Virus record (IMG/VR): IMGVR_UViG_3300045007_000064
Location: 60,236-124,235 of that record
Strand: one strand, 5' to 3'
Length of the DNA stretch: 64,000 nucleotides
Origin: a virus
Lineage: Duplodnaviria; Heunggongvirae; Uroviricota; Caudoviricetes
The first letter of the stretch is position 1; each line of letters starts with the position of its first letter. This document shows positions 32,968 through 53,126 of the stretch, one piece after another. Both the position numbers and the translations under genes were made by a program. Under the pieces are notes generated by a model. It made no database searches. It was not told the origin of the DNA and saw nothing but the letters and a program-made list of their open reading frames with translations.

Positions 32968-33043
32968 TGGTGGAAGATAGGAGATTCGAACTCCTGACAT
33001 CCTGCTTGCAAAGCAGGCGCTCTACCAACTGAGCTAATCCCCC
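32968..33043 (-). tRNA. tRNA-Ala (anticodon TGC), CCA encoded
   Basis: GGGGGAT acceptor with the G3·U70 wobble pair, D-arm GCTCAGTTGGTAGAGC, anticodon loop CTTTGCAA, T-arm AGGAGTTCGAATCTCCT. Confidence 0.75.
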
Positions 33044-33104
33044 AAACTAACCAACATGCATGCGTGGTGCCTCGAAAGACGCTTACGTTGCAGCGGTTGG
33101 TAGC

Positions 33105-33177
33105 GTGGACCAGACGTGATTCGAACACGCAACCTTCACTATGCCATAGTGTTGCTCTACCGTTGGAGCTACAGGCC
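33105..33177 (-). tRNA. tRNA-Ala (anticodon GGC)
   Basis: G3·U70 pair, T-loop TTCGAAT, anticodon loop ATGGCAT; one mismatch in the acceptor stem. Confidence 0.5.
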
Positions 33178-33196
33178 CATATGTTGTTCAGTTGTT

Positions 33197-33273
33197 TGGT
33201 GGAGACGAGCGGAATCAAACCCCTCACACTCTGCTTGCAAAACAAAGTCGCCATTCTTGGTACATGCGCCCCC
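33197..33273 (-). pseudogene. degenerate tRNA-Ala(TGC)-like element, CCA encoded
   Basis: Acceptor, T-arm (TTTGATT loop) and CCA are intact. The anticodon region CTTTGTTTTGCAAGCAG cannot form a proper stem, and the D-arm is aberrant. Confidence 0.35.
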
Positions 33274-33291
33274 GTAGGATGTTCAGTTATA

Positions 33292-33368
33292 TGGTGCCCA
33301 CACCTAGAGTTGAACTAGGACTTACGAGTTATCAGCTCGTCGTGCAGAGACCGCTACACCATGCGGGC
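33292..33368 (-). tRNA. tRNA-Ile (anticodon GAT), CCA encoded
   Basis: Perfect cloverleaf with anticodon loop CTGATAA and T-loop TTCAACT. Confidence 0.75.
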
Positions 33369-33579
33369 AGACAACATACAGGGCGAACATGGGGTGCCAA
33401 CGGAGATTCCATTCTTTCATGGTGTCATACGGGCCTTTCCCCGTCAGGTCATTCACTCTGACCCGAAGGCCATTCACCGGAGTGACACGTCCCAGATTAC
33501 CCTCTGGGAGGTTACTGCAAAGTTACGTGGACCTACGTCCACGGTTTGTGGTGGTTACATTACCTATTAGTGTGATAAC

Positions 33580-33647
33580 CGTATAGCTTCGGCTCGCCCT
33601 GTTGAGTTGTTGGTATCTATCGTAGCACACTTTCTCGGAGTGTGCAA
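33580..33647 (-). promoter_or_regulatory. promoter E plus leader, driving the first tRNA array
   Basis: Minus-strand TTGCAC at 33642-33647, a 17-nt spacer, TACGAT at 33619-33624, then the leader GAGCCGAAGCUAUACGGUUAUCAC. Confidence 0.5.
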
Positions 33648-33653
33648 CTTTTC

Positions 33654-33992
33654 TTACTCGTCTGCTCCGTAGGCTGCGTCACGTGCGCGGCGCAGGAGCT
33701 TGATGAGCTTGTTGATCTGGTAGCGAGACAGGCTGTCCGTGTAGATCGCCCGCTTCGTCACCTGTGGATCATCCTTCAGCGATTCCGCGTTTGCGATCCA
33801 CTGCTCGCGCGGGAACTCGATGCTGAGTTGGACGTGACCCATGTCACGACTCCAGTTTAGCTCAACACCGGGGGCGTAGTCAATGTGACCGCCCTCTGGA
33901 ACTTCACCAGGTTCACCGACTCCGGCGTTGACCTGGTGGCCTTCCTTGTTGTAGATGTCCCACGATGAGGGGACGACAGTTTCCTTGGGCAC
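33654..33992 (-). CDS. hypothetical protein
   Basis: ORF. Confidence 0.45.
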   Translation of the reverse strand: MPKETVVPSSWDIYNKEGHQVNAGVGEPGEVPEGGHIDYAPGVELNWSRDMGHVQLSIEFPREQWIANAESLKDDPQVTKRAIYTDSLSRYQINKLIKLLRRARDAAYGADE

Positions 33993-34052
33993 GGTGGCCT
34001 CCTAGTCTCTACCGCATCACGCGGTCTACCCAGCCTCACGCCGGGGAGGAGA

Positions 34053-34454
34053 CTATTCTACCACGGAAAATGCGAGAGCGGCTTCACCAAGAATCTGCTT
34101 TGACAGGTTCTCGGCCTCGATCTTGTTGCCCAGGGCCACGAGGAAGCTCGGTAGCCAGGGCTGATTGCCGGTCGCGTCGTTCTCGTGGGTGAGAATAATC
34201 ACGTTGTTCAGGTTGGTGCGCTGCACCCAGACTGCCGGGTCCACATGGATTTCTTCGCGGTCCTCGTCCAGCACCATCATGTCCAGCTCTTCGCGGCGGA
34301 TGGGGGTGACGCTACTGGGTTCGTCGGTCTCCCGATTCGCCTGCTTGTTCTCCCAGCGCCACAGGTACGCGCCGACAGGCTTGATGGATCGGTTCTCGAA
34401 CCGGTCCCAGTAGGCCATCACCTTGCGGGGGTCGTTGAAAATCAGTACAGCCAT
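34053..34454 (-). CDS. hypothetical protein
   Basis: Start at MAVLIF, overlapping the upstream stop. Confidence 0.45.
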   Translation of the reverse strand: MAVLIFNDPRKVMAYWDRFENRSIKPVGAYLWRWENKQANRETDEPSSVTPIRREELDMMVLDEDREEIHVDPAVWVQRTNLNNVIILTHENDATGNQPWLPSFLVALGNKIEAENLSKQILGEAALAFSVVE

Positions 34455-34828
34455 TACTTGTCCTTTGTCTTCCAGCGGTCTTCGAAATCCTTGCCGTGTT
34501 CCTCTTCCCACGCAGCCCAGTCTTCGAGGGACTTCGGCTCCATGTAGGCAAGCCACAGCTCTATCTCGCCCATTTCGTAGGCGGTCCTGACCTGGAGGTA
34601 GGATTCGTATGCCTGTGTGGCCTTGCCTAGATCGAGGCCGAGCTTGAACGCGTCGGACTCGAAATCGTCGTCCTCCACCCAGGAGACGTACACCTCTTCA
34701 TCGGTGTAGTCATCGCCTTCCTGGAACACTCTGCGGGCGTACTCGCAGGCCTGTTCGACTGACTCGGGGTCGAGACCCTGGTCAGTGGCGTAGCTGCGGA
34801 AGCTATCCAGTCGGTTGTCGTTTGTCAT
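34454..34828 (-). CDS. acidic hypothetical protein
   Basis: ORF. Confidence 0.5.
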   Translation of the reverse strand: MTNDNRLDSFRSYATDQGLDPESVEQACEYARRVFQEGDDYTDEEVYVSWVEDDDFESDAFKLGLDLGKATQAYESYLQVRTAYEMGEIELWLAYMEPKSLEDWAAWEEEHGKDFEDRWKTKDK

Positions 34829-34829
34829 G

Positions 34830-34907
34830 CGCCCCAGGCAGGATTCGAACCCGCATTTTCATCCAGTTACGATTCTCGGAGGTAGAAGCTCCGGTCGGTA
34901 CTGAGGC
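34830..34907 (-). pseudogene. tRNA-like element with an Arg(TCT)-like anticodon hairpin and aberrant architecture
   Basis: Intact 7-bp acceptor stem, T-arm GCGGG-TTCGAAT-CCTGC and hairpin CGGAG-CTTCTAC-CTCCG, but no D-arm and a 22-nt insert before the T-arm. Confidence 0.3.
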
Positions 34908-34914
34908 ATGTCGG

Positions 34915-35538: not shown

Positions 35539-35616
35539 TGGAGACCCTGGTCGGAATCGAACCGACAAATTCATTCGCTTTGCAGGCGAAGCGCTTGACC
35601 ACTCACGCACAGGGCC
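35539..35616 (-). tRNA. tRNA-Cys (anticodon GCA), CCA encoded
   Basis: Anticodon arm TTCGC-CTGCAAA-GCGAA and T-arm GTCGG-TTCGATT-CCGAC. Confidence 0.7.
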
Positions 35617-35617
35617 G

Positions 35618-35693
35618 TGGTAGGGTGTGTGGGACTCGAACCCACGCTCGTCAGATTATGAGTCTGGTGCCTTTACCAGCTTGGCTAACACCC
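35618..35693 (-). tRNA. tRNA-Met or tRNA-Ile2 (anticodon CAT), CCA encoded
   Basis: Anticodon loop CTCATAA and T-arm GTGGG-TTCGAGT-CCCAC. Confidence 0.6.
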
Positions 35694-35694
35694 C

Positions 35695-36737: not shown

Positions 36738-37964
36738 TCAGCCCTTGACGCAGAGGATCGTCTGAAGGTGCGCGACCTTCTCGACCAGGTTGCTCTGAGC
36801 CTCGACCACCGCGTGTAGGTCCTTGTAGGCGTGAGAGATTTCGTCAATCACACCCGCGTCCTTGCGCGACTCGATGCCCTTCATGGTCTCAGCCACGTCC
36901 GCCACCGTGAAGCGGCGCTTGGCCTCACCACGGCTCATCTTCCGACCGGCACCGTGAGATGCGGAGGTCAGAGACGCCTCGTTACCGAGACCACGGACGA
37001 TGTACGAGCCGGTTGCCATCGATCCGGGGATCAACGCCAGCTCGCCCTTCTTCGCGGAGATTGCGCCCTTACGGGTCACGATCATGTCCACCGGCTTGCC
37101 ATCCACGAGGTGAGTCTCCTCCGCCACGTAGTTGTGGTGGCAGTTGATTTCGTCCTCGAAGCGCACCTTGGAGATGACGCGAGCCAGCTCACGCTTCACG
37201 AGGGACATCATCACCGTACGGCTGGTCGCCGCGTAGTTCTGCGCCCACATGAGGTCGTGCCGGTACTCCAGCATCTCCGGGGTGTCCTTCAGGAAGACCG
37301 CCAGCTCCTTGATCGGAAGGTCCTGGTTGTGATCCAGGGTCTTCGCGATGGAGATGTGGCGCTCTGCCAGCTCCTTGCCGATGTTCCGCGAACCGGAATG
37401 CAGCGTGATCCAGATGTTGTCATCCTCGTCCGTGCACAGTTCGATGAAGTGGTTACCTCCACCGAGGGTACCGAGCTGCTTACCGGCACGCTCCTCCAAC
37501 TTGTCCGCACCCGGGGCGCGGAGAGAGTCGAAGCCGTTCTTCAGCTTGGTGACCTCGGAGTTCAGGCCGTTACCGCCGATGTCTCGGAGGTCCTTCGAGG
37601 ACAGCGCCTCACCGTGGGAGTTGAAGCCGACCGGCACCGCGCGCTCGATGGCGCTACGGAGCTTGTGGAGGATGCCGTCAACGTCCTCACGAGTGAGGTT
37701 CGTCTTCACGGCGTTCACACCACAGCCGATGTCCACACCCACAGCGGACGGACAGATCGCGCTCGTGGAGCCGATCACCGTACCGATGGTCGCGCCAGCG
37801 CCCAGGTGAACGTCGGGCATCACGCGCAGCTCGTCAACCCACGGCAGCGCGCCGACGTTGCGAATCTGCTGAACCGCCTGCGGTTCGATTTCCCACTCGT
37901 TCGCCCACATGAGTGTGCGAGTCTTTGCACCCGGCAATTCAACCGGGAAGTTGTTGTCAGTCAT
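36738..37964 (-). CDS. rtcB: RtcB-family RNA 3'-phosphate ligase
   Basis: VMPDVHLGAGATIG, part of the metal-binding histidine signature, in a 408-aa protein. Confidence 0.9.
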   Translation of the reverse strand: MTDNNFPVELPGAKTRTLMWANEWEIEPQAVQQIRNVGALPWVDELRVMPDVHLGAGATIGTVIGSTSAICPSAVGVDIGCGVNAVKTNLTREDVDGILHKLRSAIERAVPVGFNSHGEALSSKDLRDIGGNGLNSEVTKLKNGFDSLRAPGADKLEERAGKQLGTLGGGNHFIELCTDEDDNIWITLHSGSRNIGKELAERHISIAKTLDHNQDLPIKELAVFLKDTPEMLEYRHDLMWAQNYAATSRTVMMSLVKRELARVISKVRFEDEINCHHNYVAEETHLVDGKPVDMIVTRKGAISAKKGELALIPGSMATGSYIVRGLGNEASLTSASHGAGRKMSRGEAKRRFTVADVAETMKGIESRKDAGVIDEISHAYKDLHAVVEAQSNLVEKVAHLQTILCVKG

Positions 37965-38254
37965 TTCGTGTCCTCGTAGTGGAAGAAGATTTCGGTGTCG
38001 GGTCGAAGGTAAATCTTGTACCCGTTTTGGTTGATCAGAATCGTCCCGTTCTGGTGAACGTAGATCGACTCAATGGTGTAGACATGCGGCTTGGTGATCC
38101 AGGCCTTAGCGGTATCATCCCAGTGTCGGGAAGGCTTAGCCTTCCCCCGGCGACTACCGTAGACGATGGACTCTACCGTACGCCCTAGGTCGCTGATCCG
38201 TAGTTCGGATGCTGGAACTGGAATCTTCGAGACGGTCATGCGTTGTACGTCCAC
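37961..38254 (-). CDS. hypothetical protein
   Basis: ATGA coupling to the rtcB start. Confidence 0.45.
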   Translation of the reverse strand: MDVQRMTVSKIPVPASELRISDLGRTVESIVYGSRRGKAKPSRHWDDTAKAWITKPHVYTIESIYVHQNGTILINQNGYKIYLRPDTEIFFHYEDTK

Positions 38255-38697
38255 AGCTCGATGTCTGCTCGATACCGCAGGGCAACTTCGGTGAGGACGA
38301 CCTCGACCATACGTTGGTCCAGACCGCCGATACCGCTGCCGATCCGAGGCAGGGCCAGAGTCTCGATGCCCACCTCATCACACTTCTGGAGGGCCGCAGC
38401 CACACCGCCGATGAGCAGGTCGTAGGAGGCGTTCGCCCCGGGAAGCTCCTGCGAGGCGATGTTCAGAACGAGCGCAGGCTGTCCCCACGGGGTCTTCAGG
38501 CTCCAGGAGAACACGCCTCCCGGCTCCAGGGTGCGGTTGCTGCACGCCTCCCGGTAGGCCTCGAACATCTCAGGGAACCGCTTGCTGAACTGCGCAGCGA
38601 TCCCCGCGCCCATAACGCCCACGGTGTTGACGCCGTGGCCGATGGCTCGCGAAGTCGTGGTGAAGATGTCGCCGTAGCGGTGGATAAGCTTTGTCAT
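38236..38697 (-). CDS. macro-domain protein (ADP-ribose or ADP-ribose-1''-phosphate processing)
   Basis: GDIF...GVNTVGVMGAGIAAQF and LPRIGSGIGG are macro-domain signatures. Confidence 0.7.
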   Translation of the reverse strand: MTKLIHRYGDIFTTTSRAIGHGVNTVGVMGAGIAAQFSKRFPEMFEAYREACSNRTLEPGGVFSWSLKTPWGQPALVLNIASQELPGANASYDLLIGGVAAALQKCDEVGIETLALPRIGSGIGGLDQRMVEVVLTEVALRYRADIELWTYNA

Positions 38698-39744: not shown

Positions 39745-40818
39745 TCAGCGGTCGTGCTTCAGGAGGTACCGCTGGGAGATTGCCTTCCACGAGGCCCGAG
39801 CACCGTTCGGGAACGTTGCTACCTCGGTGTTCCGCCAGACGACACCCTCGACAGGCCGCTGAGGGTTGATCAGGCTCTTCAGGTTCTCGACCTGAGCCAG
39901 AGCCTCGTCCTGGTCCTTCGGGTAGGGCAGGTCGTGGATCGGCACGGCGATGTCGAGCGCCCACTGTGGCCAGGAGGCACGAGGAAGCTCCTCGCGGTCA
40001 ACCTGGATCGTGAAGAGTCGGAACTGGACTTGCTTGACCTGGAGAGGGTTGCCCTGGATTCCAGGACCAAAAATCTCCCCCTGGAGAGCGATTTCAGCCT
40101 CCACCAGGTAATCCTGAGCGGGGTACCAGTTGGTCATCTTCTCGTGGAGGTCCAGCTCGCGAGCCAGCTTCCACATGGAGTTGTGGCTGGTGTCCTCGAT
40201 GTCCCAGTTGCGCGAGGCCACGCCGTTCTCGTTGTTGGCGTAGAAGACGGTCATTGACGAGCCGTCAATCTTCTCGGTGGCGACCCAGGCATCCGGAGTC
40301 GGCTGAGAGCCGTCGAAGAGCCAGGAGAGGTTCTGCACGCGCTCCTCGTCGGTCTTGCGGAAGATGGACGGGAAGGCACCCTTGGCGCTTCCTGCAAGCT
40401 CGGCGGGGATGGGCGGGTCCCACTTCTCCAGTCCGGGAATGGCGGACGTGATATCCATACCGAGCAGAGCAATGCCCTGAGCCACGGCGAAAGCTTCATC
40501 CTCGAACTGAGCGAAGGGAAGCACGAGGCCCTGGCTGTAGACGCCACGGAGCTTCGCAGTCTTCAGGACGTGGCCCTCCACGCCCTCCTGGTTCTTCCGC
40601 GCTCCACGAGGCGCGAGGAAGGTGAATCGGGGGTCGTCCAGCGGCAGGAACGAGTCGATTTCGAAGTAGACCACAAGGTCTCCAACCTCGAACTCTCCGA
40701 TGCGCACGACGACATCCCAGCCGCGCACACGCGCGACCTCGATGCTGTCGGCTCCCTCGATGGGACGCAGCTCTGTGATTTCCTCGACCGTTGCGAGGGC
40801 GCGTTCTTCTGTAGTCAT
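39745..40818 (-). CDS. ATP-dependent RNA ligase (nucleotidyltransferase KxDG family)
   Basis: Motif I EKIDGSS with the covalent-adenylation lysine, an N-terminal OB-like region, and later ligase motifs. Confidence 0.65.
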   Translation of the reverse strand: MTTEERALATVEEITELRPIEGADSIEVARVRGWDVVVRIGEFEVGDLVVYFEIDSFLPLDDPRFTFLAPRGARKNQEGVEGHVLKTAKLRGVYSQGLVLPFAQFEDEAFAVAQGIALLGMDITSAIPGLEKWDPPIPAELAGSAKGAFPSIFRKTDEERVQNLSWLFDGSQPTPDAWVATEKIDGSSMTVFYANNENGVASRNWDIEDTSHNSMWKLARELDLHEKMTNWYPAQDYLVEAEIALQGEIFGPGIQGNPLQVKQVQFRLFTIQVDREELPRASWPQWALDIAVPIHDLPYPKDQDEALAQVENLKSLINPQRPVEGVVWRNTEVATFPNGARASWKAISQRYLLKHDR

Positions 40819-40872
40819 GAGTCCAGCGTATACGAAAAAAGCCTCGCTGTCAACGCCAGCGAGGCTATGTTC

Positions 40873-40946
40873 TTGGTGGGTCCTGCGGGGATCGAACCCG
40901 CGCTTGAAGGGTAAAAGCCAACAGTGCTCCCGCTACACCAAAGACC
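40873..40946 (-). tRNA. tRNA (anticodon not resolved), CCA encoded
   Basis: Good acceptor stem and T-arm GCGGG-TTCGATC-CCCGC; the anticodon stem is ambiguous. Confidence 0.45.
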
Positions 40947-40947
40947 C

Positions 40948-41019
40948 GCACTCCCACCTGAAATCGAATCAGGACTTCGAGGACCAAAATCTCGCGTGGC
41001 TACCGTTACACTATGGGAG
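40948..41019 (-). tRNA. tRNA-Gln (anticodon TTG)
   Basis: A1-U72 pair, T-arm CCTGA-TTCGATT-TCAGG, anticodon loop TTTTGGT. Confidence 0.5.
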
Positions 41020-41079
41020 TATGTGGAAGCTTTAAGGACTCGAACGTGCGCACGTTTGTCCCACGGTTTTCCAACCTCC

Positions 41080-41150
41080 GCTCCCCAGCCTGGATTCGAA
41101 CCAAGACGAGCAGATTCAGAGTCTGCCATGCTACCGTTACATCACCGGGG
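41080..41150 (-). tRNA. tRNA-Gln (anticodon CTG)
   Basis: U1-A72 pair, anticodon arm GCAGA-CTCTGAA-TCTGC, T-arm CTTGG-TTCGAAT-CCAGG. Confidence 0.7.
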
Positions 41151-41266
41151 AATACGCCTGCCGCATCTACACATACGCTTTGAGGCCGTGACCCAGGCCA
41201 GCAGGACTTCTGTGGAGGTCTCGACTTCGATTTCGCCCCGAAGGATACGCATATCGACTCCACATT

Positions 41267-41337
41267 GCTCCCCAGCCTGGTTACGATCCAAGTCTTCGAT
41301 GTTCAGAGCATCGCGTGCTGCCAGTACACTACCGGGG
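41267..41337 (-). tRNA. tRNA-Gln(CTG)-like paralogue with T-loop ATCGTAA
   Basis: Same acceptor as the preceding gene, anticodon arm CGATG-CTCTGAA-CATCG, A in place of T54. Confidence 0.4.
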
Positions 41338-41346
41338 AATAGATGG

Positions 41347-41466
41347 GCTACATGCCCACCAAGATTGCTGCTACGAGAATGATCAGTCCAAGACCGATGG
41401 TGGCGAGGGTGATCTTCACGTCTGAGGGCGACTTGAACTGGCCCTCTTCTTCTGCGTCGAATGTCA
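41347..41466 (-). CDS. small membrane protein (39 aa)
   Basis: Under 60 aa. AGGA ribosome-binding site, strong GC3 bias, one predicted transmembrane helix; lies between tRNA genes. Confidence 0.35.
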
Positions 41467-41483
41467 TGCTGACATCCTACCAC

Positions 41484-41558
41484 ATGGTGTCCCCGGAGGG
41501 GATCGAACCCTCGACCAAGGTCTTAGGAGGACCTGATTCTGCCACTGAACTACGGAGA
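41484..41558 (-). tRNA. tRNA-Arg (anticodon CCT), CCA encoded
   Basis: Anticodon arm AGGTC-CTCCTAA-GACCT and T-arm CGAGG-GTTCGATC-CCCTC. Confidence 0.75.
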
Positions 41559-41774
41559 CATATGCTGACCTGTAAGCCGGGTTCTGTCGTTGAAGACGCA
41601 CATCTACCTTCGCCACATACCCGCTCATCATCGGGGAATGACACCCTAGAACTGTTTGTGTTGCACCCACGGCCTCACCGCTGCTTCATTAGTCTGTGCT
41701 TAGTGGACGTACCACACGGCTATCATTCGGGTGCCCGGACTTTCCTCAGCTTGCGCCGCGTGCGTCCAGTCAGC

Positions 41775-41847
41775 GTGCCAACACCGGGATTCGAACCCGG
41801 AACCTTCAGCCTCGGAAGCTGCTGCTCTATCCATTGAGCTATGTCGG
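41775..41847 (-). tRNA. tRNA-Arg (anticodon CCG)
   Basis: Anticodon loop TTCCGAG and T-arm CCGGG-TTCGAAT-CCCGG. Confidence 0.6.
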
Positions 41848-41848
41848 C

Positions 41849-41923
41849 GTGGTCTCCCCGGCAAGAATCGAACTTGCATCGCCTGGTTCGTAGCCAGACA
41901 TCGTATCCATTGGAACACGAGGA
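41849..41923 (-). tRNA. tRNA-Arg (anticodon ACG), CCA encoded
   Basis: Anticodon arm TCTGG-CTACGAA-CCAGG. Confidence 0.7.
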
Positions 41924-41973
41924 GTTACCTGCGACTTAAACAGAGCACCGACTTTACGATGTTGCGCCGCATT

Positions 41974-42046
41974 GTACCCCAAGAGGGATTCGAACCCCCG
42001 ACCTCTGCATCCGTAGTGCAGCGCTCTATCCACTGAGCTATTGAGG
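41974..42046 (-). tRNA. tRNA-Arg (anticodon ACG), second copy
   Basis: Anticodon arm CTGCA-CTACGGA-TGCAG and T-arm GGGGG-TTCGAAT-CCCTC. Confidence 0.55.
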
Positions 42047-42047
42047 C

Positions 42048-44114: not shown

Positions 44115-44259
44115 GTGCGGGAACCTAAGAGTTAGCGACCTCTGACCATGACTCCCGAATACGTCAGCGGCTCTTGTGTTTTGGGCGACTGGTTACGGCC
44201 CGCAGGGTTTCTCGTGTGTTCCCATTTGTATACCGCCTCCAAACCCTTGTCGGCGGGAG

Positions 44260-44333
44260 TGCCGCGTCTGGGAATCGAACCCAGGACCTCTCCCGTACCA
44301 GGGGAGTGTTCTAAACCACTGAACTAACGCGGC
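44260..44333 (-). tRNA. tRNA-Thr (anticodon GGT)
   Basis: Anticodon arm CTCCC-CTGGTAC-GGGAG and T-arm CCTGG-GTTCGATT-CCCAG. Confidence 0.75.
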
Positions 44334-44420
44334 ATGGCATGAGACGGGCACCAACTCTCGCCCTTACTGAGGCTCACACACCCCAACGGATTTTGCTGTG
44401 CACAGCAGGCATTCCTACCT

Positions 44421-44494
44421 TGGTGCCGGAACTCAGAATCGAACTGAGGGCTGCTCGTTACGAAGGAGCTGCTTTACCACTAAGCGATACCGGC
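44421..44494 (-). tRNA. tRNA-Thr (anticodon CGT), CCA encoded
   Basis: Anticodon loop TTCGTAA; U6·U67 mismatch in the acceptor stem. Confidence 0.6.
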
Positions 44495-44575
44495 ATGCAG
44501 GGTTTTTCACTGACAGCCTCTACTGTCACTCGGATATTACCGAGACGCATTCCTAGGAAATGTCCCTTACGTTTG

Positions 44576-44648
44576 TGCCGGAGTTGGGAATCGAACCCAC
44601 GTTAATCCGCTTTACAAGAGCGGTGCAAAACCACTATGCATCACCGGC
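44576..44648 (-). tRNA. tRNA-Thr (anticodon TGT)
   Basis: Anticodon arm CCGCT-CTTGTAA-AGCGG; the same U6·U67 mismatch. Confidence 0.65.
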
Positions 44649-44656
44649 AAGAGTGC

Positions 44657-44766
44657 TGGAGGACTTGAACCTCTCGGACGCCGCATGGACCCTAGGCCTG
44701 TTTTACATGCGTTAGTGCGTGCCTGTTATTTTCTTCAGCCCGAATCATTACGGGTCTACAGCACCG
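44657..44766 (-). pseudogene. unresolved tRNA-like element of about 110 nt
   Basis: 7-bp acceptor stem (GGTGCTG / CAGCACT) and T-arm (TTCAAGT loop) with about 45 extra nt between the D region and the T-arm. Confidence 0.25.
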
Positions 44767-44840
44767 TGCGGAGAACGGGGATCGAACCCGCGACCTTCTC
44801 GTTGGCAACGAGACGCTCTGCCAGATTGAGCTACCTCCAC
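44767..44840 (-). tRNA. tRNA-Gly (anticodon GCC)
   Basis: Anticodon arm TCTCG-TTGCCAA-CGAGA and T-arm GCGGG-TTCGATC-CCCGT. Confidence 0.7.
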
Positions 44841-44962
44841 TTAGGTGCATGGGCATTACCCCCATGCTGGCCGACACCCCTGTAACGAAACTCAGTCGGA
44901 GAGACCCGGCACTGCGTTTTAGCCTCGTCAAGTGCGTTCGAGGGAGCCGTATGCATCCGGCT

Positions 44963-45036
44963 TGGAGCGACTAGCGGGAATCGAACCCGCGCGTACACCA
45001 TGGCAAGGTGTCAAGCTACCATTACATCATAGTCGC
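44963..45036 (-). tRNA. tRNA-Gly (anticodon GCC), second copy, CCA encoded
   Basis: Anticodon arm ACACC-TTGCCAT-GGTGT and T-arm CGCGG-GTTCGATT-CCCGC. Confidence 0.5.
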
Positions 45037-45142
45037 GTATGGACACGGCGTCCCCAGAGCGACTGCCCGAGGACAACAATAACGACTTCGCTATTCGCAT
45101 TCACATATCGTTACCGCTAAGCACCCGTATCCGGTTGCTCCG

Positions 45143-45213
45143 AGTGAGTGACGGGGATCGAACCCGCGACAACAGGGTGGAAGCCTGTCATGTTACCGCT
45201 ACACCACACTCAC
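45143..45213 (-). tRNA. tRNA-Gly (anticodon TCC)
   Basis: Anticodon arm ACAGG-CTTCCAC-CCTGT. Confidence 0.7.
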
Positions 45214-45362
45214 GTATCTGTACCATTCTAGCACAGAAGTGTTTAGGGCGCAACCATCGAAAGTTGCATCTGCCACGCGGGAAGTCATGACTTTCCCGGT
45301 TCCGCCTCGGGTAGTACTCCCCGATTTGGACAAGGCCGTGTTTCCATTGACACCAGCCCCCG

Positions 45363-45436
45363 TACCCCCACTCGGACTCGAACCGAGGACCCACCGCTTA
45401 AGAGGCGGTTGCTCTAACCAACTGAGCTATAGAGGC
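45363..45436 (-). tRNA. tRNA-Lys (anticodon CTT)
   Basis: Anticodon arm ACCGC-CTCTTAA-GCGGT and T-arm CTCGG-TTCGAGT-CCGAG. Confidence 0.7.
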
Positions 45437-45507
45437 AAATTGAGAAGGGACGTTTGTGCCACTCGTCCTGCCGTGATCATTCGGCCATGCCCTTCTCGGA
45501 CGCGACG

Positions 45508-45581
45508 TGGGTCCCACGGGATTCGAACCCGTATTCCGCTGGGTAAGAGCCAGGAGTAATAAGCCGTTATACCAGAGACCC
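45508..45581 (-). tRNA. tRNA-Lys (anticodon CTT), second copy, tentative
   Basis: Anticodon loop CTCTTAC and T-arm ACGGG-TTCGAAT-CCCGT. Confidence 0.45.
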
Positions 45582-45689
45582 AAATGCGAGGCGGCAAGAT
45601 TTGTGACCTTTGCGCTTCTCTCCGGTACGGTCATGCGGAGACCTCGTGCTATTACAGTACTACAAGTCGGGGCTATTGTCAACCCCTCG

Positions 45690-45775
45690 CGGCGAGCAGA
45701 GAAATCGAATCCCACAGCCTTGCGACTGCCGACTCCTTAGCAGGGAGCGCCCAGAACCATCGGGGATTACTCGCC
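45690..45775 (-). tRNA. tRNA-Ser (anticodon GCT), class II
   Basis: Anticodon arm GCTCC-CTGCTAA-GGAGT, long variable arm, T-loop TTCGATT. Confidence 0.55.
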
Positions 45776-46127
45776 AAAGATACCACCTAAGTAAAGGTAC
45801 GAGCAACCCTCCTGTGTCTCATGGACGTGTACCCCTGTCCCCGTAAGCCTACTTAGCAACATACAGGACTCGATACACCAAGGTTGCAACCCAAGCCGCA
45901 CAAAGACGACGTGTGGTAACGCGGAGAGCAGAGTAGTCGAAACCCATACCTTGCGGTACCAGCGGTGTTCAAAGCCGCGCCGTCATTCCCTGCCGGTTTA
46001 CTCTCCATGGCGGTGAGCAGAGTATTCGAAACCCATGCCCGGAGGCACCATCAGTTTTCGAGGCTGAGTCACGGAACCCCCGTGATTTACTCACCATGTG
46101 CCGGGATCAAGGCTCCCGGCGAGCCTA

Positions 46128-46744: not shown

Positions 46745-46748
46745 ATTG

Positions 46749-46834
46749 CGGTGGGCAGCGGAATCGAACCGCAAGGATTTTCACCCTCGACTATCTTTCC
46801 AGGATAGCTCCGTCACCATCAGGAGTTACCCACC
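46749..46834 (-). tRNA. tRNA-Ser (anticodon GGA), class II
   Basis: D-stem CTCC / GGAG, anticodon arm CTATC-CTGGAAA-GATAG, long variable arm. Confidence 0.6.
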
Positions 46835-48985: not shown

Positions 48986-49416
48986 TAGTACCATCCCTCG
49001 CTGTGCTCGTTGCTCTCTGCGATGACTTCCCACGGCCCGTATGTGACGGTGCGCTTCATGACGCGGCCCGGGCGACCGGTACGGTCCTGGTTACCATGAG
49101 ACCGGATAGACTGCTCGCCCCACTTGATCTGCTCCTCTTCGGAGGCACCACTAGATGGGCTGTACAGATGCATGCGCTGAGGCTTCCACTCGCTGAGAGG
49201 CGGATCATCCGGGCGCTTCGGGAGATATCGAGCGCTGTAGTCGTACACGTCGTAATCAACCGCATACTCGACACGAACGGTGTCTTCGTCCATACTTCCG
49301 AGTACATCTTCGGGCTGGTTGACGGCTCGTCGGGCCTTATCCTCCAGACCAACTCTCTTCCGAGTCGGAGACACGCTTGGCCCGTCTGACATTTCGCTAA
49401 GATAGTGACCCATCAT
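48985..49416 (-). CDS. hypothetical protein (MGHYLSEM family, member 2)
   Basis: N-terminus MMGHYLSEMSD. Confidence 0.45.
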   Translation of the reverse strand: MMGHYLSEMSDGPSVSPTRKRVGLEDKARRAVNQPEDVLGSMDEDTVRVEYAVDYDVYDYSARYLPKRPDDPPLSEWKPQRMHLYSPSSGASEEEQIKWGEQSIRSHGNQDRTGRPGRVMKRTVTYGPWEVIAESNEHSEGWY

Positions 49417-49874
49417 TCCTCCGAGTCTTCAGGCCAGTTGGTACCGGCTGTCATGGTTCCGGGGTCGAGCTGCGTGTGACCGGCATCGTGGATCACGGTG
49501 GTCATCTGCTTGATCTTCGTGGGACCGGCGTCCAGCACCACGACCTTGCAGTCGGGATGCACGCCCAGCGCCACCAGGGCCGCGTGCACGGCGTGTGCGG
49601 CGAGCTTGTTGGGCGTGGCCTTGTCCTTCAGCGCCCGGTTGAGGTAGATGCGCATCTTGGGCTGTGGACGGTCCTGCGGCCCCTCAGCCGCCAGCTCAGC
49701 GCTGAGGCGGTTGCGGAGGAGGCGCTTCTCGTCATAGGACGAGGCAACGTTCGCTCGGAGCCGTTCAATCTCCTCCGCCGCCTCCAGGATCAGAGAGGCG
49801 GGCACGGAAGCACGACCCGTATCACTCGGGTAGGTGGCATGTGCTCGAAGCAGATCACTCAGGTTCTCAGTCAT
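49413..49874 (-). CDS. peptidyl-tRNA hydrolase, PTH2-like (tentative)
   Basis: KMRIYLNRALKDKATPNKLAAHAVHAAL resembles the PTH2 core motif. Start taken at MTENLS. Confidence 0.45.
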   Translation of the reverse strand: MTENLSDLLRAHATYPSDTGRASVPASLILEAAEEIERLRANVASSYDEKRLLRNRLSAELAAEGPQDRPQPKMRIYLNRALKDKATPNKLAAHAVHAALVALGVHPDCKVVVLDAGPTKIKQMTTVIHDAGHTQLDPGTMTAGTNWPEDSEE

Positions 49875-49878
49875 GACT

Positions 49879-49917: not shown

Positions 49918-49996
49918 GCTAATTGTCCAACGTAGCTCATCCCGTTGGATCGACAGTTACGGATGACCGAGAGCTTCAGGGGTTCCGTTGTCGTCG

Positions 49997-50071
49997 TCTC
50001 GCAGAGGGGATTCGAACCCCCAGCATCGCGGACTCTCATTCCACGTGGTCTACCAGATTGCCTACCGCGAG
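49997..50071 (-). tRNA. tRNA (anticodon not resolved)
   Basis: Acceptor CTCGCGG / CTGCGAG and T-arm GGGGG-TTCGAAT-CCCCT; the D and anticodon arms are ambiguous. Confidence 0.45.
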
Positions 50072-50081
50072 ATAAAGGAGA

Positions 50082-50152
50082 CGAGAAGTCAGGACTCGAA
50101 CCCGATCCAACGCCCATAACGGCGCTGTGCTGACCCTTACACTACATCTCTC
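50082..50152 (-). pseudogene. tRNA-like element (imperfect)
   Basis: T-arm TCGGG-TTCGAGT-CCTGA and D-arm are present, but the acceptor stem has mismatches and the loop that should hold the anticodon is 6 nt long. Confidence 0.3.
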
Positions 50153-50234
50153 AGGAGGCTAGTGAGACCTACCTGCTCCTGCACAGCGTCCAGCCCGATC
50201 AGGTCACTATCCCAATTTGACTTTCTGCTTTGCG

Positions 50235-50308
50235 TGCCCCTGGTGGGGTTCGAACCCACAGACCCCAAGGTTTGAGCTTGGTCCATATTCCTGTTCTGGT
50301 ACAAGGGC
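50235..50308 (-). tRNA. class-I-shaped tRNA with anticodon CAA (a leucine codon)
   Basis: 74 nt, 5-nt variable loop, A73. Anticodon arm CCAAG-CTCAAAC-CTTGG and T-arm GTGGG-TTCGAAC-CCCAC. Confidence 0.45.
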
Positions 50309-50309: not shown

Positions 50310-50789
50310 TTACTTTCTGTACTTGTGAGGCATGTTACTGGTCTCTTCCTGCGAGTGGCAATTAGGACAGATGAATCTGAGGTTGTCCCGTCTGTTATCC
50401 TCCCACTTCCCATTGATGTGATCAATTTCTAGTGTAAGCTTCTTACCGTTCCAGGATGGGCCTAGACCGCAGCACGCGCACTCCTCGCTTCGACCGATTG
50501 ATATCAGTGCTCTGCGCAGCGCAGCGGTCTTTTCTTTGCCGCGAGAGATGTCTCTCAGTACAAGTACTTCGTCCGGAGTGCGTCTATTTCTAGCCGCTCG
50601 TCCCTTTGACCACCCCTGACCTCTGAAATGAGAAGTGTCAACCTCAAACTCCTTCAGCTTTTTGCTGATATGGGAGTGAGTGCCACCAGCCCGTCGAAGA
50701 CCGAGGTAGTCAAGAACTTCCATGATGCTGATGCTGTTGGCAGCAGCTTCTGTTAGAAGCTCTTTGGTATACTTGATGTGCTTTGCCAT
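50310..50789 (-). CDS. HNH endonuclease
   Basis: EIDHINGKWEDNRRDNLRFICPNCH. AT-rich. Start taken at MAKHIKY, which has a TATACT-like box close upstream. Confidence 0.7.
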   Translation of the reverse strand: MAKHIKYTKELLTEAAANSISIMEVLDYLGLRRAGGTHSHISKKLKEFEVDTSHFRGQGWSKGRAARNRRTPDEVLVLRDISRGKEKTAALRRALISIGRSEECACCGLGPSWNGKKLTLEIDHINGKWEDNRRDNLRFICPNCHSQEETSNMPHKYRK

Positions 50790-50806
50790 ATACCAAGTAT
50801 ACCATT

Positions 50807-50880
50807 GTATCCGTGGAGGGATTCGAACCCACACTGCACAGGACCTAAACCTGTTGCCTCCTACCGTTGGGCTACACGGA
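50807..50880 (-). tRNA. class-I-shaped tRNA with anticodon TAG (a leucine codon)
   Basis: 74 nt, anticodon arm ACAGG-TTTAGGT-CCTGT, T-loop TTCGAAT. Confidence 0.45.
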
Positions 50881-50944
50881 CATACAGCGCCAGGGAAGAG
50901 CGTGGCAACCCTTCACAAGTCGGCCTTCCACCGAACCCTGACTC

Positions 50945-51017
50945 GTAGCGCAGACCGGATTCGAACCGGCAGCATCTGATGTTCTGGGCATCAGTGGTCT
51001 TCCGTTGCCTACCGCGC
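50945..51017 (-). tRNA. class-I-shaped tRNA with anticodon CAG (a leucine codon)
   Basis: 73 nt, anticodon arm TGATG-CCCAGAA-CATCA, T-arm GCCGG-TTCGAAT-CCGGT. Confidence 0.45.
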
Positions 51018-51128
51018 CATATCGGATACGCTCGCGGGGTATCCCTCCCAGTCTAACAAACTGCAAGAGAGCACTCACGCATCCTCAGACCTTGCGACAG
51101 ATACCCTCTGTCAGGCGAGTCACTCCTT

Positions 51129-51200
51129 GTGGGACCGAGGGGAATCGAACCCCTGCCATTCGGGCTTCAACCGAACGCTCTACCTACTAAGCTACAGCCC
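51129..51200 (-). tRNA. tRNA-Phe (anticodon GAA)
   Basis: D-arm GCTTAGTAGGTAGAGC, anticodon arm TTCGG-TTGAAGC-CCGAA, T-arm AGGGG-TTCGATT-CCCCT. Confidence 0.75.
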
Positions 51201-51224
51201 CGTTGCCCCGAAGGGCTGTCCCGG

Positions 51225-51396
51225 CCTACGCCGAGACGACTACGAGAGTGACCTTGCGATCATTCTCCAGCGCTCGCTTGCCCATGCGGGCCAGCTCACG
51301 CGACGAATACACGAACGGCTCGCCGTTCTTCTGACGGACGATCTGACGATCTTCCTTTGTCACCAGGGTGAACTTCTCATTCTTGTTATTTGTCAT
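51225..51396 (-). CDS. small hypothetical protein (57 aa)
   Basis: Under 60 aa. Moderate GC3 bias; starts 2 nt downstream of the tRNA-Tyr gene. Confidence 0.3.
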
Positions 51397-51397
51397 G

Positions 51398-51472
51398 TGG
51401 CGAGACTGAGAATCGAACTCAGAGGGGCTACTGTTTTACAGACAGCGCAGGGACCCAGCCCTAGACCTCGCC
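51398..51472 (-). tRNA. tRNA-Tyr (anticodon GTA) with a short variable arm
   Basis: Anticodon arm GCTGT-CTGTAAA-ACAGT and T-arm CTGAG-TTCGATT-CTCAG; 75 nt. Confidence 0.5.
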
Positions 51473-51601
51473 ATATCTGCGTTTGCTTTCATCCTGTACC
51501 GTAGTATTCCACCAGGCAATCCAGGTCCCGCAGGTTCCGTGCTGTGTCTAAGTTACCACGTAGGTCCTGGCACGTCAAGCCCTACGATCTTTTGTTTCAA
51601 G

Positions 51602-51675
51602 TGATGCGGACGGGAATCGAACCCGCGACGCCCGGATTGAAAGTCCAGGTTGCAACTACCAGCGTACACCGCACC
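51602..51675 (-). tRNA. tRNA-Glu (anticodon TTC)
   Basis: Anticodon arm CTGGA-CTTTCAA-TCCGG and T-arm GCGGG-TTCGATT-CCCGT. Confidence 0.55.
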
Positions 51676-51760
51676 ATTCGGCAGGGGAGAAGTGGTGAAC
51701 GTCCTCCATTTTCCTGCCTAAGTCCAGAAGGCTTATCCACCAACAACCTTTCCTGACTTG

Positions 51761-51832
51761 TACTCCCACGGGGAATTGAACCCCGACCTCATGACTGAGA
51801 ATCACGTGTACTAACCATTATACTATGAGAGC
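51761..51832 (-). tRNA. tRNA-Glu (anticodon CTC)
   Basis: Anticodon loop TTCTCAG and T-arm CGGGG-TTCAATT-CCCCG. Confidence 0.6.
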
Positions 51833-51844
51833 ATATTTCATGCG

Positions 51845-51916
51845 TCCTCGCGAAGGGAGTTGAACCCTCTCTACAAGCTTGACAAGCTTGCGTGCGCACC
51901 GGTACACTACGCGAGG
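51845..51916 (-). tRNA. tRNA-Asp (anticodon GTC)
   Basis: Anticodon arm CAAGC-TTGTCAA-GCTTG; perfect acceptor stem. Confidence 0.7.
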
Positions 51917-52161
51917 AAAGGTGAGTAGTGGGATCGCCCCACACTGACAGGTAGACATTCGCTAAAATGAATTGCTGTCAGACCATGCGTTAGCCGCTAA
52001 GCAAATCCCGTTCATGACCGCTAAGTCGTTCCGGTTGACCCAGACTCACCGATTGGCTCTGCCTGTGACCTCCGATTGAGATTCCACATGTGCGTTTCGT
52101 CTCCCGCATCTACTACGGGATTTCGTTCCGCCATACTCCAGTCGAGTGCCCCCGACTGTTG

Positions 52162-52236
52162 CGATCCTGACCGGATTTGAACCGGCGACCTCCTGCTTGA
52201 CGGGCAGGCGAACACTCCAAACTGTTCTACAAGACC
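52162..52236 (-). tRNA. tRNA-Asp (anticodon GTC), second copy
   Basis: Discriminator G73, anticodon arm CCTGC-CCGTCAA-GCAGG, T-arm GCCGG-TTCAAAT-CCGGT. Confidence 0.5.
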
Positions 52237-52303
52237 AATCTCCGTCATATCCTGGACGGCCAGGCCCGACTGTCGGGCTAGAGCTAGAAATACTCTAGGT
52301 TCG

Positions 52304-52377
52304 TTGCGGGAGTTGGAGTCGAACCAACGTCGTCAGGTTATGAGCCTGCACCGGAACCACCTCCGGGTTACCCCGCA
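52304..52377 (-). tRNA. tRNA with anticodon CAT (third copy; Met, fMet or Ile2)
   Basis: Anticodon loop CTCATAA and T-arm GTTGG-TTCGACT-CCAAC. Confidence 0.5.
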
Positions 52378-52417
52378 ATACCACTGTATCACACGTTCAG
52401 AGTACGTGTCAACTCCG

Positions 52418-52491
52418 GGTGACCGACGGGGTTCGAACCCGCAAAAAACAGGTCCACAACCTGCCGCATTTTCCGCCTCTGCCACGGCCAC
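52418..52491 (-). tRNA. tRNA-His (anticodon GTG)
   Basis: Discriminator C73 and anticodon arm GCAGG-TTGTGGA-CCTGT. Confidence 0.65.
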
Positions 52492-52529
52492 ACTTAGGGA
52501 GGATATAGACCAGGGGTCCACTCCTCTTG

Positions 52530-52605
52530 TCGGGATAACAGGATTTGAACCTGCGACCTCACGCCCCCCAGGCGCGCGCTCTAAACCAAACTGAGCTATA
52601 TCCCG
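52530..52605 (-). tRNA. tRNA-Pro (anticodon GGG)
   Basis: Perfect acceptor stem CGGGATA / TATCCCG and anticodon arm CGCGC-CTGGGGG-GCGTG. Confidence 0.7.
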
Positions 52606-52671
52606 TTACGTAGGTTCCTCATTCGTCGGAGTCTATACCGAGCACGGGAGTTTACCCACAACTAACCTGCG

Positions 52672-52745
52672 TCTAGGTGACAGGATTTGAACCTGCGACT
52701 TCTCCCGTCCGAGGGGAGCGACCTACCAAGCTGGCCTACACCTAG
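52672..52745 (-). tRNA. tRNA-Pro (anticodon CGG)
   Basis: Acceptor CTAGGTG / CACCTAG and anticodon arm CTCCC-CTCGGAC-GGGAG. Confidence 0.65.
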
Positions 52746-52835
52746 TCAGGTTGTTTCAACGAAGGCTCCTCAGCCTCTCCCTCGGATGTGCCGTCTGTGA
52801 CGATAGGCTCCCAGGACCGATCCTGCGTTAGTTAG

Positions 52836-52876
52836 ACTCTAGCAGACCGAATCTGCCGTTGTCAAGTGTCGAAGCT
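52836..52876 (-). promoter_or_regulatory. strong sigma-A-type promoter driving the second tRNA array
   Basis: Minus-strand TTGACA, an 18-nt spacer, then TAGAGT; the leader contains a UUCG-loop hairpin. Confidence 0.55.
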
Positions 52877-52944
52877 CCTACCCACCTGGCACATCGACTT
52901 TAGGCACGTAACTGCCCACTCTCCGCTTCCCCGAAGGGAAGAAT

Positions 52945-52985
52945 TAGACTCTAGCAGACGCATCTGCCAGTGTCAAGCACGTACG
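52945..52985 (-). promoter_or_regulatory. second tandem promoter driving the tRNA array
   Basis: Minus-strand TTGACA, a 17-nt spacer, then TAGAGT. It lies inside a roughly 50-nt direct repeat shared with the promoter at 52836-52876. Confidence 0.55.
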
Positions 52986-53055
52986 GTGTTCTACCTTAAA
53001 CTACCAGACGAACCAACGCCCGGGCGGGACTACGATACCCCCATCTCCGTACTCG

Positions 53056-53126
53056 TCAAGCTGGGGAGAATCGAACTCCCACCTCAAGGTCCCAAACCCC
53101 GTGCGCTACCATTACGCTACAGCCTG
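53056..53126 (-). tRNA. tRNA-Pro (anticodon TGG)
   Basis: D-stem GCGT / GCGC, anticodon loop TTTGGGA, T-arm GGGAG-TTCGATT-CTCCC. Confidence 0.5.

Follow-up and report, generated by a model that had tools for sequence, protein, structure and literature searches.

A reduced type-A RNase P RNA within the tRNA arrays of a large Microbacterium phage

Few ribozymes are universal; the RNA of ribonuclease P (RNase P), one of them, has so far been regarded as a strictly cellular or organellar gene. In bacteria, its catalytic domain holds the active site, binds the acceptor stem, binds the 5' leader together with the protein subunit, and contacts the 3'-CCA through loop L15; recognition of the T and D loops falls to the specificity domain. 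Isolated bacterial catalytic domains are active with protein, and engineered minimal RNAs and catalytic domains (Min1 of Waugh and Pace, and the constructs of Green and Vold and of Loria and Pan) reportedly cleave pre-tRNA with protein but without a specificity domain. Reduction has occurred in nature as well, in the RNase P RNAs of Pyrobaculum and of organelles; the type-T RNA of Pyrobaculum and other Thermoproteaceae, credited to Lai et al. in 2010, is said to be ~200 nucleotides (nt) long, with a catalytic domain and almost no specificity domain. Loss of helix P12 in the type-T family has been mentioned elsewhere, and in bacteria of the candidate phyla radiation (CPR) diverged or reduced RNase P RNAs have been described in which P12, P13, P14, and P18 are absent and whose scores do not reach the Rfam thresholds (PMC8172020). 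Here we describe a ~211-nt RNase P RNA of bacterial type-A descent lying within the tRNA arrays of a tailed phage (Caudoviricetes), on a 64,000-nt stretch of IMG/VR record IMGVR_UViG_3300045007_000064 (positions 60,236 to 124,235 of that record; hereafter the window).

In a permissive scan, the Rfam RNase P model RF00010 matched the minus strand of the window at positions 41557-41777 with 71.7 bits (E = 3e-20), the full model (positions 1-367) being fitted into 221 nt. An earlier note on this DNA, made from its letters without database searches, had taken the RNA genes of the arrays for tRNA or tRNA-like genes; the RNase P RNA occupies what had looked like a gap, the sole long stretch free of RNA genes (215 nt), between tRNA-Arg(CCG) and tRNA-Arg(CCU). 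Helix P1 begins 2 nt after the discriminator of tRNA-Arg(CCG) (41776) and ends 4 nt before +1 of the downstream tRNA-Arg(CCU), with U at -1.

P1, P2, P3, and P5 are present in canonical order, P3 being a helix of 4 bp with a GNRA loop. The P4 pseudoknot is kept, with conserved region (CR) I, GAGGAAAGUCCGGGC, pairing with CR-V, ACAGAACCCGGCUUAC, both exact matches to Rfam, and the bulged U is in place. P15, P16, and P17 are likewise kept, together with the L15 sequence CGGGUA, whose GGU binds the tRNA 3'-CCA; the P6 pseudoknot between L17 and J5/7 (GAAUGA with UCAUUC); and the joining segments J5/15 (GCAA) and J18/2 (AGAUG). P18 is missing, its 24 model positions having 0 nt aligned to them, and ~140 model positions are unmatched in the specificity domain, which spans P7-P14 and includes the T-loop-binding module. 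A remnant of ~55 nt is left between the P5 strands, comprising a closing helix of 3 bp, a hairpin (GUGG/CCAC), and an A-rich stretch that is conserved. The element is thus a catalytic domain of type A that carries no more than a trace of the specificity domain.

Compared with bacterial type-A RNase P RNA (RF00010, rnpB), the phage RNA has the same P1-P5, P15-P17, P4 and P6 pseudoknots, bulged U, and L15 GGU, and the same CR-I, CR-IV, and CR-V sequences, but it is ~211 rather than 350-400 nt long and has lost P18, P12-P14, and the greater part of P7-P11. It is also virus-encoded, sits flush with the tRNA genes on either side, and does not reach the family threshold. Type-T RNAs are alike in being natural, ~200 nt long, and nearly devoid of the specificity domain while keeping the catalytic domain; they differ in having an archaeal core, in acting with archaeal proteins as the sole cellular RNase P, and in lying outside tRNA arrays. 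The reduced CPR RNAs, of which Shapirobacteria examples were recovered here (L025, L031, and L053), are by contrast cellular, single-copy essential genes that have no tRNA-array context and represent a different reduction lineage. The engineered minimal RNAs are laboratory constructs, whereas the phage RNA is natural, conserved and, as judged below, under selection. Because its score falls below the Rfam threshold, the gene is invisible to standard annotation, and it is unannotated in the GenBank records of all four isolated phages that carry it.

These four are Microbacterium phages A3Wally, in which the same 215-nt interval is 99.5% identical, and Zooman, Big4, and one further phage, each with ~91% identity. 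The type-A structure with both pseudoknots was written by hand, and pairs were counted in the five phage sequences. All 56 pairs were kept in every one; 26 of the 35 variable columns fall in helices, and none breaks pairing. Twelve pairs had changed on both sides, a number reached by 0 of 500 shuffles, and these compensatory pairs are spread over P3, P4 (three), P5 (three), P6 (two), the closing helix of the specificity-domain remnant, P16, and P17. When the 3' partners were slid by 1-3 columns as a control, pairing fell to only 33-40%.

A covariance model built from the five phages was then used to recover a lineage alignment of 18 sequences. In this alignment 97% of cells were paired and 35 of 50 pairs had changed on both sides, counts that are inflated by the fitting of the alignment to the model. 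All 8 pairs of P4 were kept in the five phages, three of them compensatory, and P4 was 99.3% paired in the 18 sequences. P6 was found in all 18, as 11 different sequence pairs at the same place, and in L15 CGGGUA was conserved in 17 of 18 and its CGGGU core in 18 of 18. Judged from these alignments, the structure of the RNase P RNA is under purifying selection.

For distribution across viral contigs, IMG/VR was scanned for CR-I and CR-V separated by only 90-181 nt. Once two chance matches in coding sequence (L007 and L010) had been removed, eight contigs of 35-63% G+C remained, representing six distinct sequences, some of the contigs being 124-203 kb in length. Each has an RNase P RNA of 207-269 nt inside or at the edge of a tRNA array, with Rfam scores of 50-136 bits, two of them above threshold (L013, 136; L009, 118). 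A metagenome scan provided 14 more, including two near-identical relatives of the window RNA with extra compensatory changes in P2. In most contigs the RNase P RNA abuts a tRNA, often an Arg tRNA. By sequence comparison, related mini RNase P RNAs recur in the tRNA arrays of unrelated viral contigs. No isolated phage carrying lineages L013, L012, or L009 was found by blastn against 50,697 phage records, and a scan of species-genome contigs found no copy in a tRNA array.

At least two further phage-associated mini RNase P architectures were seen (L037:3616-3814 and L042:3963-4178; L008:676-884, L045, and L048), one with a single hairpin for the whole specificity domain (~200 nt) and the other a low-G+C form, several of them in dense tRNA arrays. 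In L014, a 203-kb viral contig, 29 tRNAs and a mini RNase P RNA are accompanied by a tmRNA gene at the array start (1-209).

Other matches were of a different nature. Ordinary rnpB genes with interiors replaced by runs of N mimic short RNase P RNAs in pattern scans (L021, L023, L026, L030, L035, L043, and L051), and the first four of these were rejected on this ground as genome contig matches; L027 and L028 were chance matches, and the others were CPR forms or a few unexplained short forms. Microcystis phage MaAM05 and the 'Bacteriophage sp.' records were set aside for their bacterial-looking or unannotated contexts. Type-A RNAs in which the specificity domain is gone or is a P8 hairpin were also present on metagenome contigs or metagenome-assembled genomes with no nearby tRNA arrays, one of them on a Rhizobiales contig (L024:7605-7778, L032:3425-3577, L039, L044, L050, and L055); these could be second copies, mobile-element genes, or assembly artefacts.

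To the 22 kb around the element, matches were found in the Microbacterium phages Big4, Zooman, A3Wally, Cece, and Pumpernickel and in one further phage, all with genomes of 186-195 kb and with 79-85% identity over 12-43% of the query. Features in the annotated relatives follow the order seen in the window: endolysin, tRNAs, RtcB, RNA ligase, and a long tRNA array with ThyX and MazG in its middle, beyond which DNA polymerase I lies on the opposite strand. Since sequence identity and feature order agree, and the layout is common to at least six relatives, the window is assigned to a known cluster of large lytic actinophages as a new member. It also encodes a ribonucleotide reductase, a deoxynucleoside monophosphate kinase, and an AAA ATPase. 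Coordinates of the RNA genes and of the RNA-repair and array-associated open reading frames (ORFs) are collected in Table 1. Directly upstream of the first tRNA block is an SPFH/Band-7 membrane protein (31505-32470, minus strand), and a Band-7-like protein is also found in the tRNA region of Streptomyces phage Comrade (L056:17450-18412).

Table 1. RNA genes, RNA-repair genes, and array-associated features of the window
Feature	Position	Strand	Evidence
HAD-like phosphatase (weak)	9827..10417	-	HAD_SAK_2, E = 1.8e-4, below Pfam cut-off
Two calcineurin-like metallophosphoesterases	10411-11373, 11599-12270	-	Pfam Metallophos
2H phosphoesterase (LigT-like)	12519..13061	-	PF13563, 31.5 bits; HMTL and HITL motifs
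RlaP pol-beta-family nucleotidyltransferase, associated with RNA repair pathways	13217..13960	-	Pfam
tRNA-Ala(UGC), Ala(GGC), Ile(GAU)	32968..33368	-	ARAGORN, Rfam
Non-canonical tRNA-like RNA	34830..34907	-	Rfam tRNA 29.6 bits; conserved in relatives
tRNA-Cys(GCA), tRNA-Met(CAU), 1 nt apart	35539..35694	-	ARAGORN, Rfam
RtcB 3'-phosphate/5'-OH RNA ligase	36738..37964	-	Pfam PF01139, 390 bits, full length, profile 1-426
Macro-domain protein	38236..38697	-	Pfam PF01661, 48 bits
Two adjacent cREC (cyclic-phosphate-processing receiver) proteins	39009-39386, 39383-39964	-	Pfam PF20274, 82 and 59 bits
ATP-dependent RNA ligase (Rnl-type)	39745..40818	-	PF09414, 73 bits; N-terminal PHA02142 OB fold
Terminator-like hairpin, 10 bp stem and T-run, directly after the array's last tRNA	40840..40866	-	Terminator scan
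tRNA-Arg(CCU), Gln(CUG) x2, Gln(UUG), Lys(UUU)	40874..41559	-	ARAGORN
Mini RNase P RNA, ~211 nt, bacterial type-A descent	41564..41774	-	Rfam RF00010, covariation
tRNA-Arg(CCG), Arg(ACG) x2, Trp(CCA)	41775..42121	-	ARAGORN, Rfam
Endonuclease VII-domain ORF inside array	42112..42822	-	Pfam
tRNA-Asn(GUU) x2	42737..42950	-	ARAGORN
HNH endonuclease inside array	43022..43516	-	Pfam
tRNA-Val x2, Thr x3, Gly x3, Lys(CUU) x2	43929..45581	-	ARAGORN, Rfam
tRNA-Ser(GCU), Ser(UGA)	45689..46006	-	Relaxed ARAGORN only; annotated Ser tRNAs at same position in relatives
tRNA-Ser(GGA), class II, 87 nt	46748..46834	-	ARAGORN
PTH2-like protein, C-terminal part of ORF 49413-50117	49413..49790	-	Weak Pfam PTH2; Big4 ortholog
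tRNA-Leu(GAG), odd tRNA called His(AUG), tRNA-Leu(CAA)	49996..50308	-	ARAGORN
Short-loop tRNA-Leu x4 and tRNA-Tyr	49996-50071, 50234-50308, 50807-50881, 50945-51018, 51397-51472	-	ARAGORN
HNH endonuclease inside array	50310..50834	-	Pfam
tRNA-Leu(UAG), Leu(CAG), Phe, Tyr, Glu x2, Asp x2, Met, His, Pro x3	50807..53126	-	ARAGORN, Rfam

Phage-derived tRNA arrays have been found in two surveys to carry a large structured RNA, named GOLLD in the one from an RNase P laboratory, along with tmRNA and HNH genes (PMC5966550, PMC6582537). The window resembles these in having a large structured RNA and homing endonucleases among the tRNA genes of phages or horizontally transferred arrays. GOLLD, however, is not related to RNase P, and no catalytic function is known for it; the surveys reported no RNase P RNA in an array (PMC5966550, PMC6582537). 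More widely, no report of a phage- or virus-encoded RNase P RNA was found in the full-text literature, subscription-only papers lying outside this scope: RNase P goes unmentioned in the jumbo-phage comparative review, the phage-tRNA paper, and the mycobacterial tRNA-array survey, and the second tRNA-array survey, from the RNase P laboratory, discusses only cellular rnpB.

ARAGORN called 43 tRNA genes within 32968-53126, all on the minus strand, of which 37 were above the Rfam tRNA model threshold. A relaxed threshold added Ser(GCU) (45689-45775) and Ser(UGA) (45921-46006), giving 43-45 cloverleaf tRNA genes in 20 kb on one strand; with the non-canonical tRNA-like element the total is 45-46. 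All 20 amino acids are covered, with readers of both G/C-ending and A/U-ending codons. A third CAU tRNA beside Cys/Met, as seen in Big4, was absent here in the relaxed ARAGORN run. The large arrays described in the earlier note were thus borne out, with far more than a handful of tRNAs even at default settings, as were the very short gaps (0-1 nt at the Lys/Gln, Arg/Trp, Cys/Met, and Arg/Arg pairs), but its count of about 50 was too high, and its statement that many of the genes encode CCA was overstated, as only 9 of 43 do so.

Besides the terminator-like hairpin in Table 1, a second strong hairpin and T-run terminator is found at 49920-49895, just past the last tRNA of its block. Promoter-like sites of the form TTGACA-17-TAnnnT are three-fold enriched on the minus strand (19 versus 6.2 expected). 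Together these signals are consistent with polycistronic transcription of the tRNA arrays: the ~45 tRNA genes would be transcribed as tightly packed minus-strand precursors, from strong sigma-70-like promoters inside the arrays to hairpin terminators at their ends.

Several of the array RNAs depart from the usual tRNA form. Bacterial Leu and Tyr tRNAs are normally class II, with a long variable arm. In the window, all four tRNA-Leu genes (74-76 nt) and the tRNA-Tyr gene (76 nt) have short variable loops and a class-I shape; the Ser tRNAs keep the long arm. Leu genes of the relatives are short in the same way (74-83 nt), as are the Tyr genes of Big4 and Cece. By analogy with the Septu defence, which cuts the variable loop of tRNA-Tyr (PMC13096335), the short Leu and Tyr loops could be a means of escape from nucleases that cut variable loops. 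The tRNA at 50080-50153 (minus strand), called His(AUG) by ARAGORN, has its anticodon at position 37, and its loop, GUUAUGG, could read UAU (Ile); the same odd gene is found in the unrelated 203-kb viral contig with a mini RNase P RNA (L014:3465-3540).

In the tRNA-like RNA, the acceptor stem and T-arm are present, the anticodon loop is CUUCUAC (UCU, Arg), and the D-arm is missing. A 21-nt stretch follows the anticodon arm, and the element also has a 15-nt GG-containing linker and an extended anticodon helix, CGA/UCG, which covaries to CGG/CCG. It is 87-100% identical in five related phages, with two compensatory pairs. Copies lie at L005:10227-10305, L001:4595-4675, and L006:3017-3099 and are unannotated in the relatives. 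In Cece, it occupies the gap between Arg(CCU) and Arg(CCG), exactly the place of the RNase P RNA in this phage.

Domain searches upheld most of the repair enzymes that had been proposed from the letters, namely RtcB, the KxDG-type ATP-dependent RNA ligase (motif I KIDG, at K183), the macro-domain protein, both calcineurin-like phosphoesterases, the 2H/LigT enzyme, and the nucleotidyltransferase, which Pfam identifies as RlaP. The HAD phosphatase found a match, though one below the cut-off. For the PTH2-like hydrolase, the Pfam match is weak (PF01981, E = 0.006, 17.3 bits against a cut-off of 23, over 25 residues), and the protein is 93% identical to its ortholog Big4 gp127, annotated as 'peptidyl tRNA hydrolase'. 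The two cREC proteins, which had escaped the earlier note, lie beside RtcB. A 238-aa protein encoded at 35810-36526 (minus strand) is conserved in Big4, Cece, and Pumpernickel, always next to RtcB and the Cys/Met tRNAs, and had no match in Pfam, PHROGs, or a PDB sequence search. No polynucleotide kinase was identified in the window. The Endonuclease VII ORF probably starts downstream of its called start, since as called it overlaps tRNA-Asn. This ORF and the two HNH ORFs among the tRNA genes recall homing endonucleases, which, as with T4 SegB, promote inheritance or amplification of tRNA regions.

A Ro60/Rsr protein, also proposed in the earlier note, could be ruled out. Ro60 is a TROVE-domain protein of ~500 aa, usually accompanied by a Y RNA. 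No TROVE match was obtained from Pfam among 40 ORFs scanned, and candidate ORFs were also negative in PHROGs and PDB sequence searches. The region has no ORF of at least 300 aa that is without another family assignment, so no unassigned ORF is long enough, and the YrlA model gives no more than 18.6 bits, at a tRNA. A Ro-like protein is present in the analogous region of Streptomyces phage Comrade, a precedent elsewhere.

T4 Pnkp/Rnl1 acts against the anticodon nuclease PrrC, and LigT-type 2H enzymes more commonly heal RNA ends as phosphodiesterases than provide a third route of ligation. Jumbo phages have been described in which tRNAs accompany RtcB, ATP-dependent ligases, phosphoesterases, Macro, and a divergent receiver domain as a conflict-related module, some with three ligase families (PMC7824862), and phage tRNAs overcome tRNA-targeting defences (PMC10264068, PMC11555353). 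The window agrees with the jumbo-phage modules in combining tRNAs with RtcB and/or ATP-dependent RNA ligases, phosphoesterases, Macro, and a receiver domain; it differs from these and from the T4 system in being without Ro/TROVE and an identified polynucleotide kinase and in adding an RNase P RNA. Its tRNA and repair module is an ordinary member of a described kind. Gene content is consistent with a phage that brings tRNAs of its own and is able to heal the ends of cleaved RNA and seal them again, in agreement with the published model (PMC7824862, PMC10264068, PMC11555353), and from gene content an anti-defence role may be proposed. The interpretation put forward in the earlier note is partly supported: it is plausible but not unusual.

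A working model for the RNase P RNA can be drawn from its placement. Processing of the 3' end of tRNA-Arg(CCG) would create its 5' end, and RNase P cleavage at the 5' end of tRNA-Arg(CCU) would create its 3' end, so that it would be released from the precursor by the enzymes that mature the neighbouring tRNAs. It would then bind the host RnpA protein. A host partner is proposed because no phage RnpA was found, either with a six-frame RNR-motif regex or by tblastn with a B. subtilis RnpA query, whose matches were all to contaminated or unverified 'phage' records, with no Microbacterium phage among them; the negative is a weak one, limited to the regex and the Bacillus query. As all catalytic-domain parts are retained and are under selection, we infer an active ribozyme subunit that, with host RnpA, probably processes phage pre-tRNAs. 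In this role it would add RNase P capacity for the flood of phage pre-tRNAs, and, with most of the specificity domain that reads the T loop gone, it may be less reliant on the canonical geometry of the tRNA elbow, which would suit the short-loop Leu and Tyr tRNAs and the D-arm-less tRNA-like RNA. The phage could benefit from this added capacity, from not depending on host RNase P during shut-off, or from an enzyme that tolerates odd substrates. The arrays are interleaved with homing-endonuclease genes and flanked by an end-healing and sealing kit of RtcB with its Macro and cREC partners, an Rnl-type ligase, 2H, phosphoesterases, and the RlaP nucleotidyltransferase.

Taken as a whole, the region is best explained as a tRNA-supply and RNA-maintenance module of a ~190-kb lytic Microbacterium phage that includes its own RNase P RNA, to which we give a probability of roughly 0.7. 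A number of observations weigh against this. The 71.7-bit score is below the Rfam gathering threshold of 100 bits; the minimum free energy fold is no better than that of shuffled sequence (z = -0.41), as is expected for a pseudoknotted RNA; the pairing counts of the 18-sequence alignment and the RnpA searches carry the limits given above; few tRNAs encode the CCA with which the retained L15 GGU would pair; and the case for expression and activity is built from sequence. In Zooman and Big4, two universally conserved P4 positions differ (A-U to G-C and G-C to U-G), changes that are exactly compensated yet unusual for the catalytic helix. Cece and Pumpernickel are without the RNA in the array regions examined, as is the array of Streptomyces phage Comrade, and the RNase P RNA is on this account regarded as an accessory gene. 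The P4 differences, the missing specificity domain, and the close relatives that do without the RNA would all suit a decoy for host RnpA or pre-tRNAs, or a structured spacer guiding precursor processing, rather than a working ribozyme. We nevertheless consider this improbable, since the strongest constraint falls on the catalytic and substrate-binding parts (P4, the bulged U, J5/15, L15 GGU, J18/2, and P6), a spacer or sponge has no need of P6 or L15, and, as noted at the outset, bacterial RNase P RNAs consisting of the catalytic domain alone are active with protein. High core identity to bacterial type-A RNase P RNA might also be expected of a decaying fragment of host rnpB picked up by chance. 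Such a fragment would not be expected to keep every pair among five phages differing by 9%, to show the same reduced architecture in distant phage lineages of different G+C with extensive covariation, or to have been shortened by clean removal of whole helices, and on these comparisons this origin is effectively refuted.

The purpose of the arrays may also be viewed differently, as mainly translational supply, by codon matching or by replacement of host tRNAs lost in shut-off, with the repair genes serving RNA housekeeping and not defence against anticodon nucleases. The near-complete tRNA set, with its readers of both codon classes, and a G+C at third codon positions of 0.76 in seven phage genes, in a genome of 58% G+C, speak for this, but co-location with RtcB, an Rnl-type ligase, 2H, cREC, and Macro is a conflict-linked signature (PMC7824862), and defences that target tRNAs have been shown to be overcome by phage tRNAs (PMC10264068, PMC11555353). 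One purpose does not exclude the other, and supply as the main one appears to us somewhat unlikely. Far less credible is the view of the earlier note in full, an exceptional three-route kit (RtcB, Rnl, and LigT, with Ro60) unique to this phage in arrays whose RNA genes are all tRNAs. The note was right about RtcB, the ligase, 2H, the phosphoesterases, and the nucleotidyltransferase, but on Ro60 and on uniqueness this version is refuted: the kit lacks Ro60, the layout is the same in every relative (at least six), modules of this kind, including jumbo phages with RtcB and two other RNA ligase families, have been described (PMC7824862), and one 'gap' is an RNase P RNA.

Beyond the single phage, the recurrence of these RNAs invites a broader reading, which we offer tentatively and at slightly less than even odds. 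Large phages of several unrelated lineages would carry a minimal RNase P ribozyme in their tRNA arrays, excised by tRNA processing and taking over host RnpA; this phage-specific enzyme, largely free of the specificity domain, would mature densely packed and deviant tRNAs such as the short-loop Leu and Tyr tRNAs and the D-arm-less Arg element, which may themselves have been shaped to escape host tRNA nucleases.

Reduced RNase P RNAs as such were already known; what appears to be new is a mini RNase P RNA that is virus-encoded, embedded in a tRNA array, conserved, and unannotated. The proposal is directly testable, as the four isolated and sequenced carriers (Big4, Zooman, A3Wally, and one further phage) grow on M. 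foliorum NRRL B-24224; Cece and Pumpernickel, without the RNA in the array regions examined, grow on other Microbacterium species. The element also provides a natural experiment on minimal bacterial RNase P, in which the parts kept without the specificity domain are P1-P6, P15-P17, L15 GGU, and J18/2. If the reading is true, it would give the first RNase P encoded by a virus and a natural example of a bacterial ribozyme consisting of the catalytic domain only, and would add tRNA 5' maturation to the translation-related functions that phages bring.

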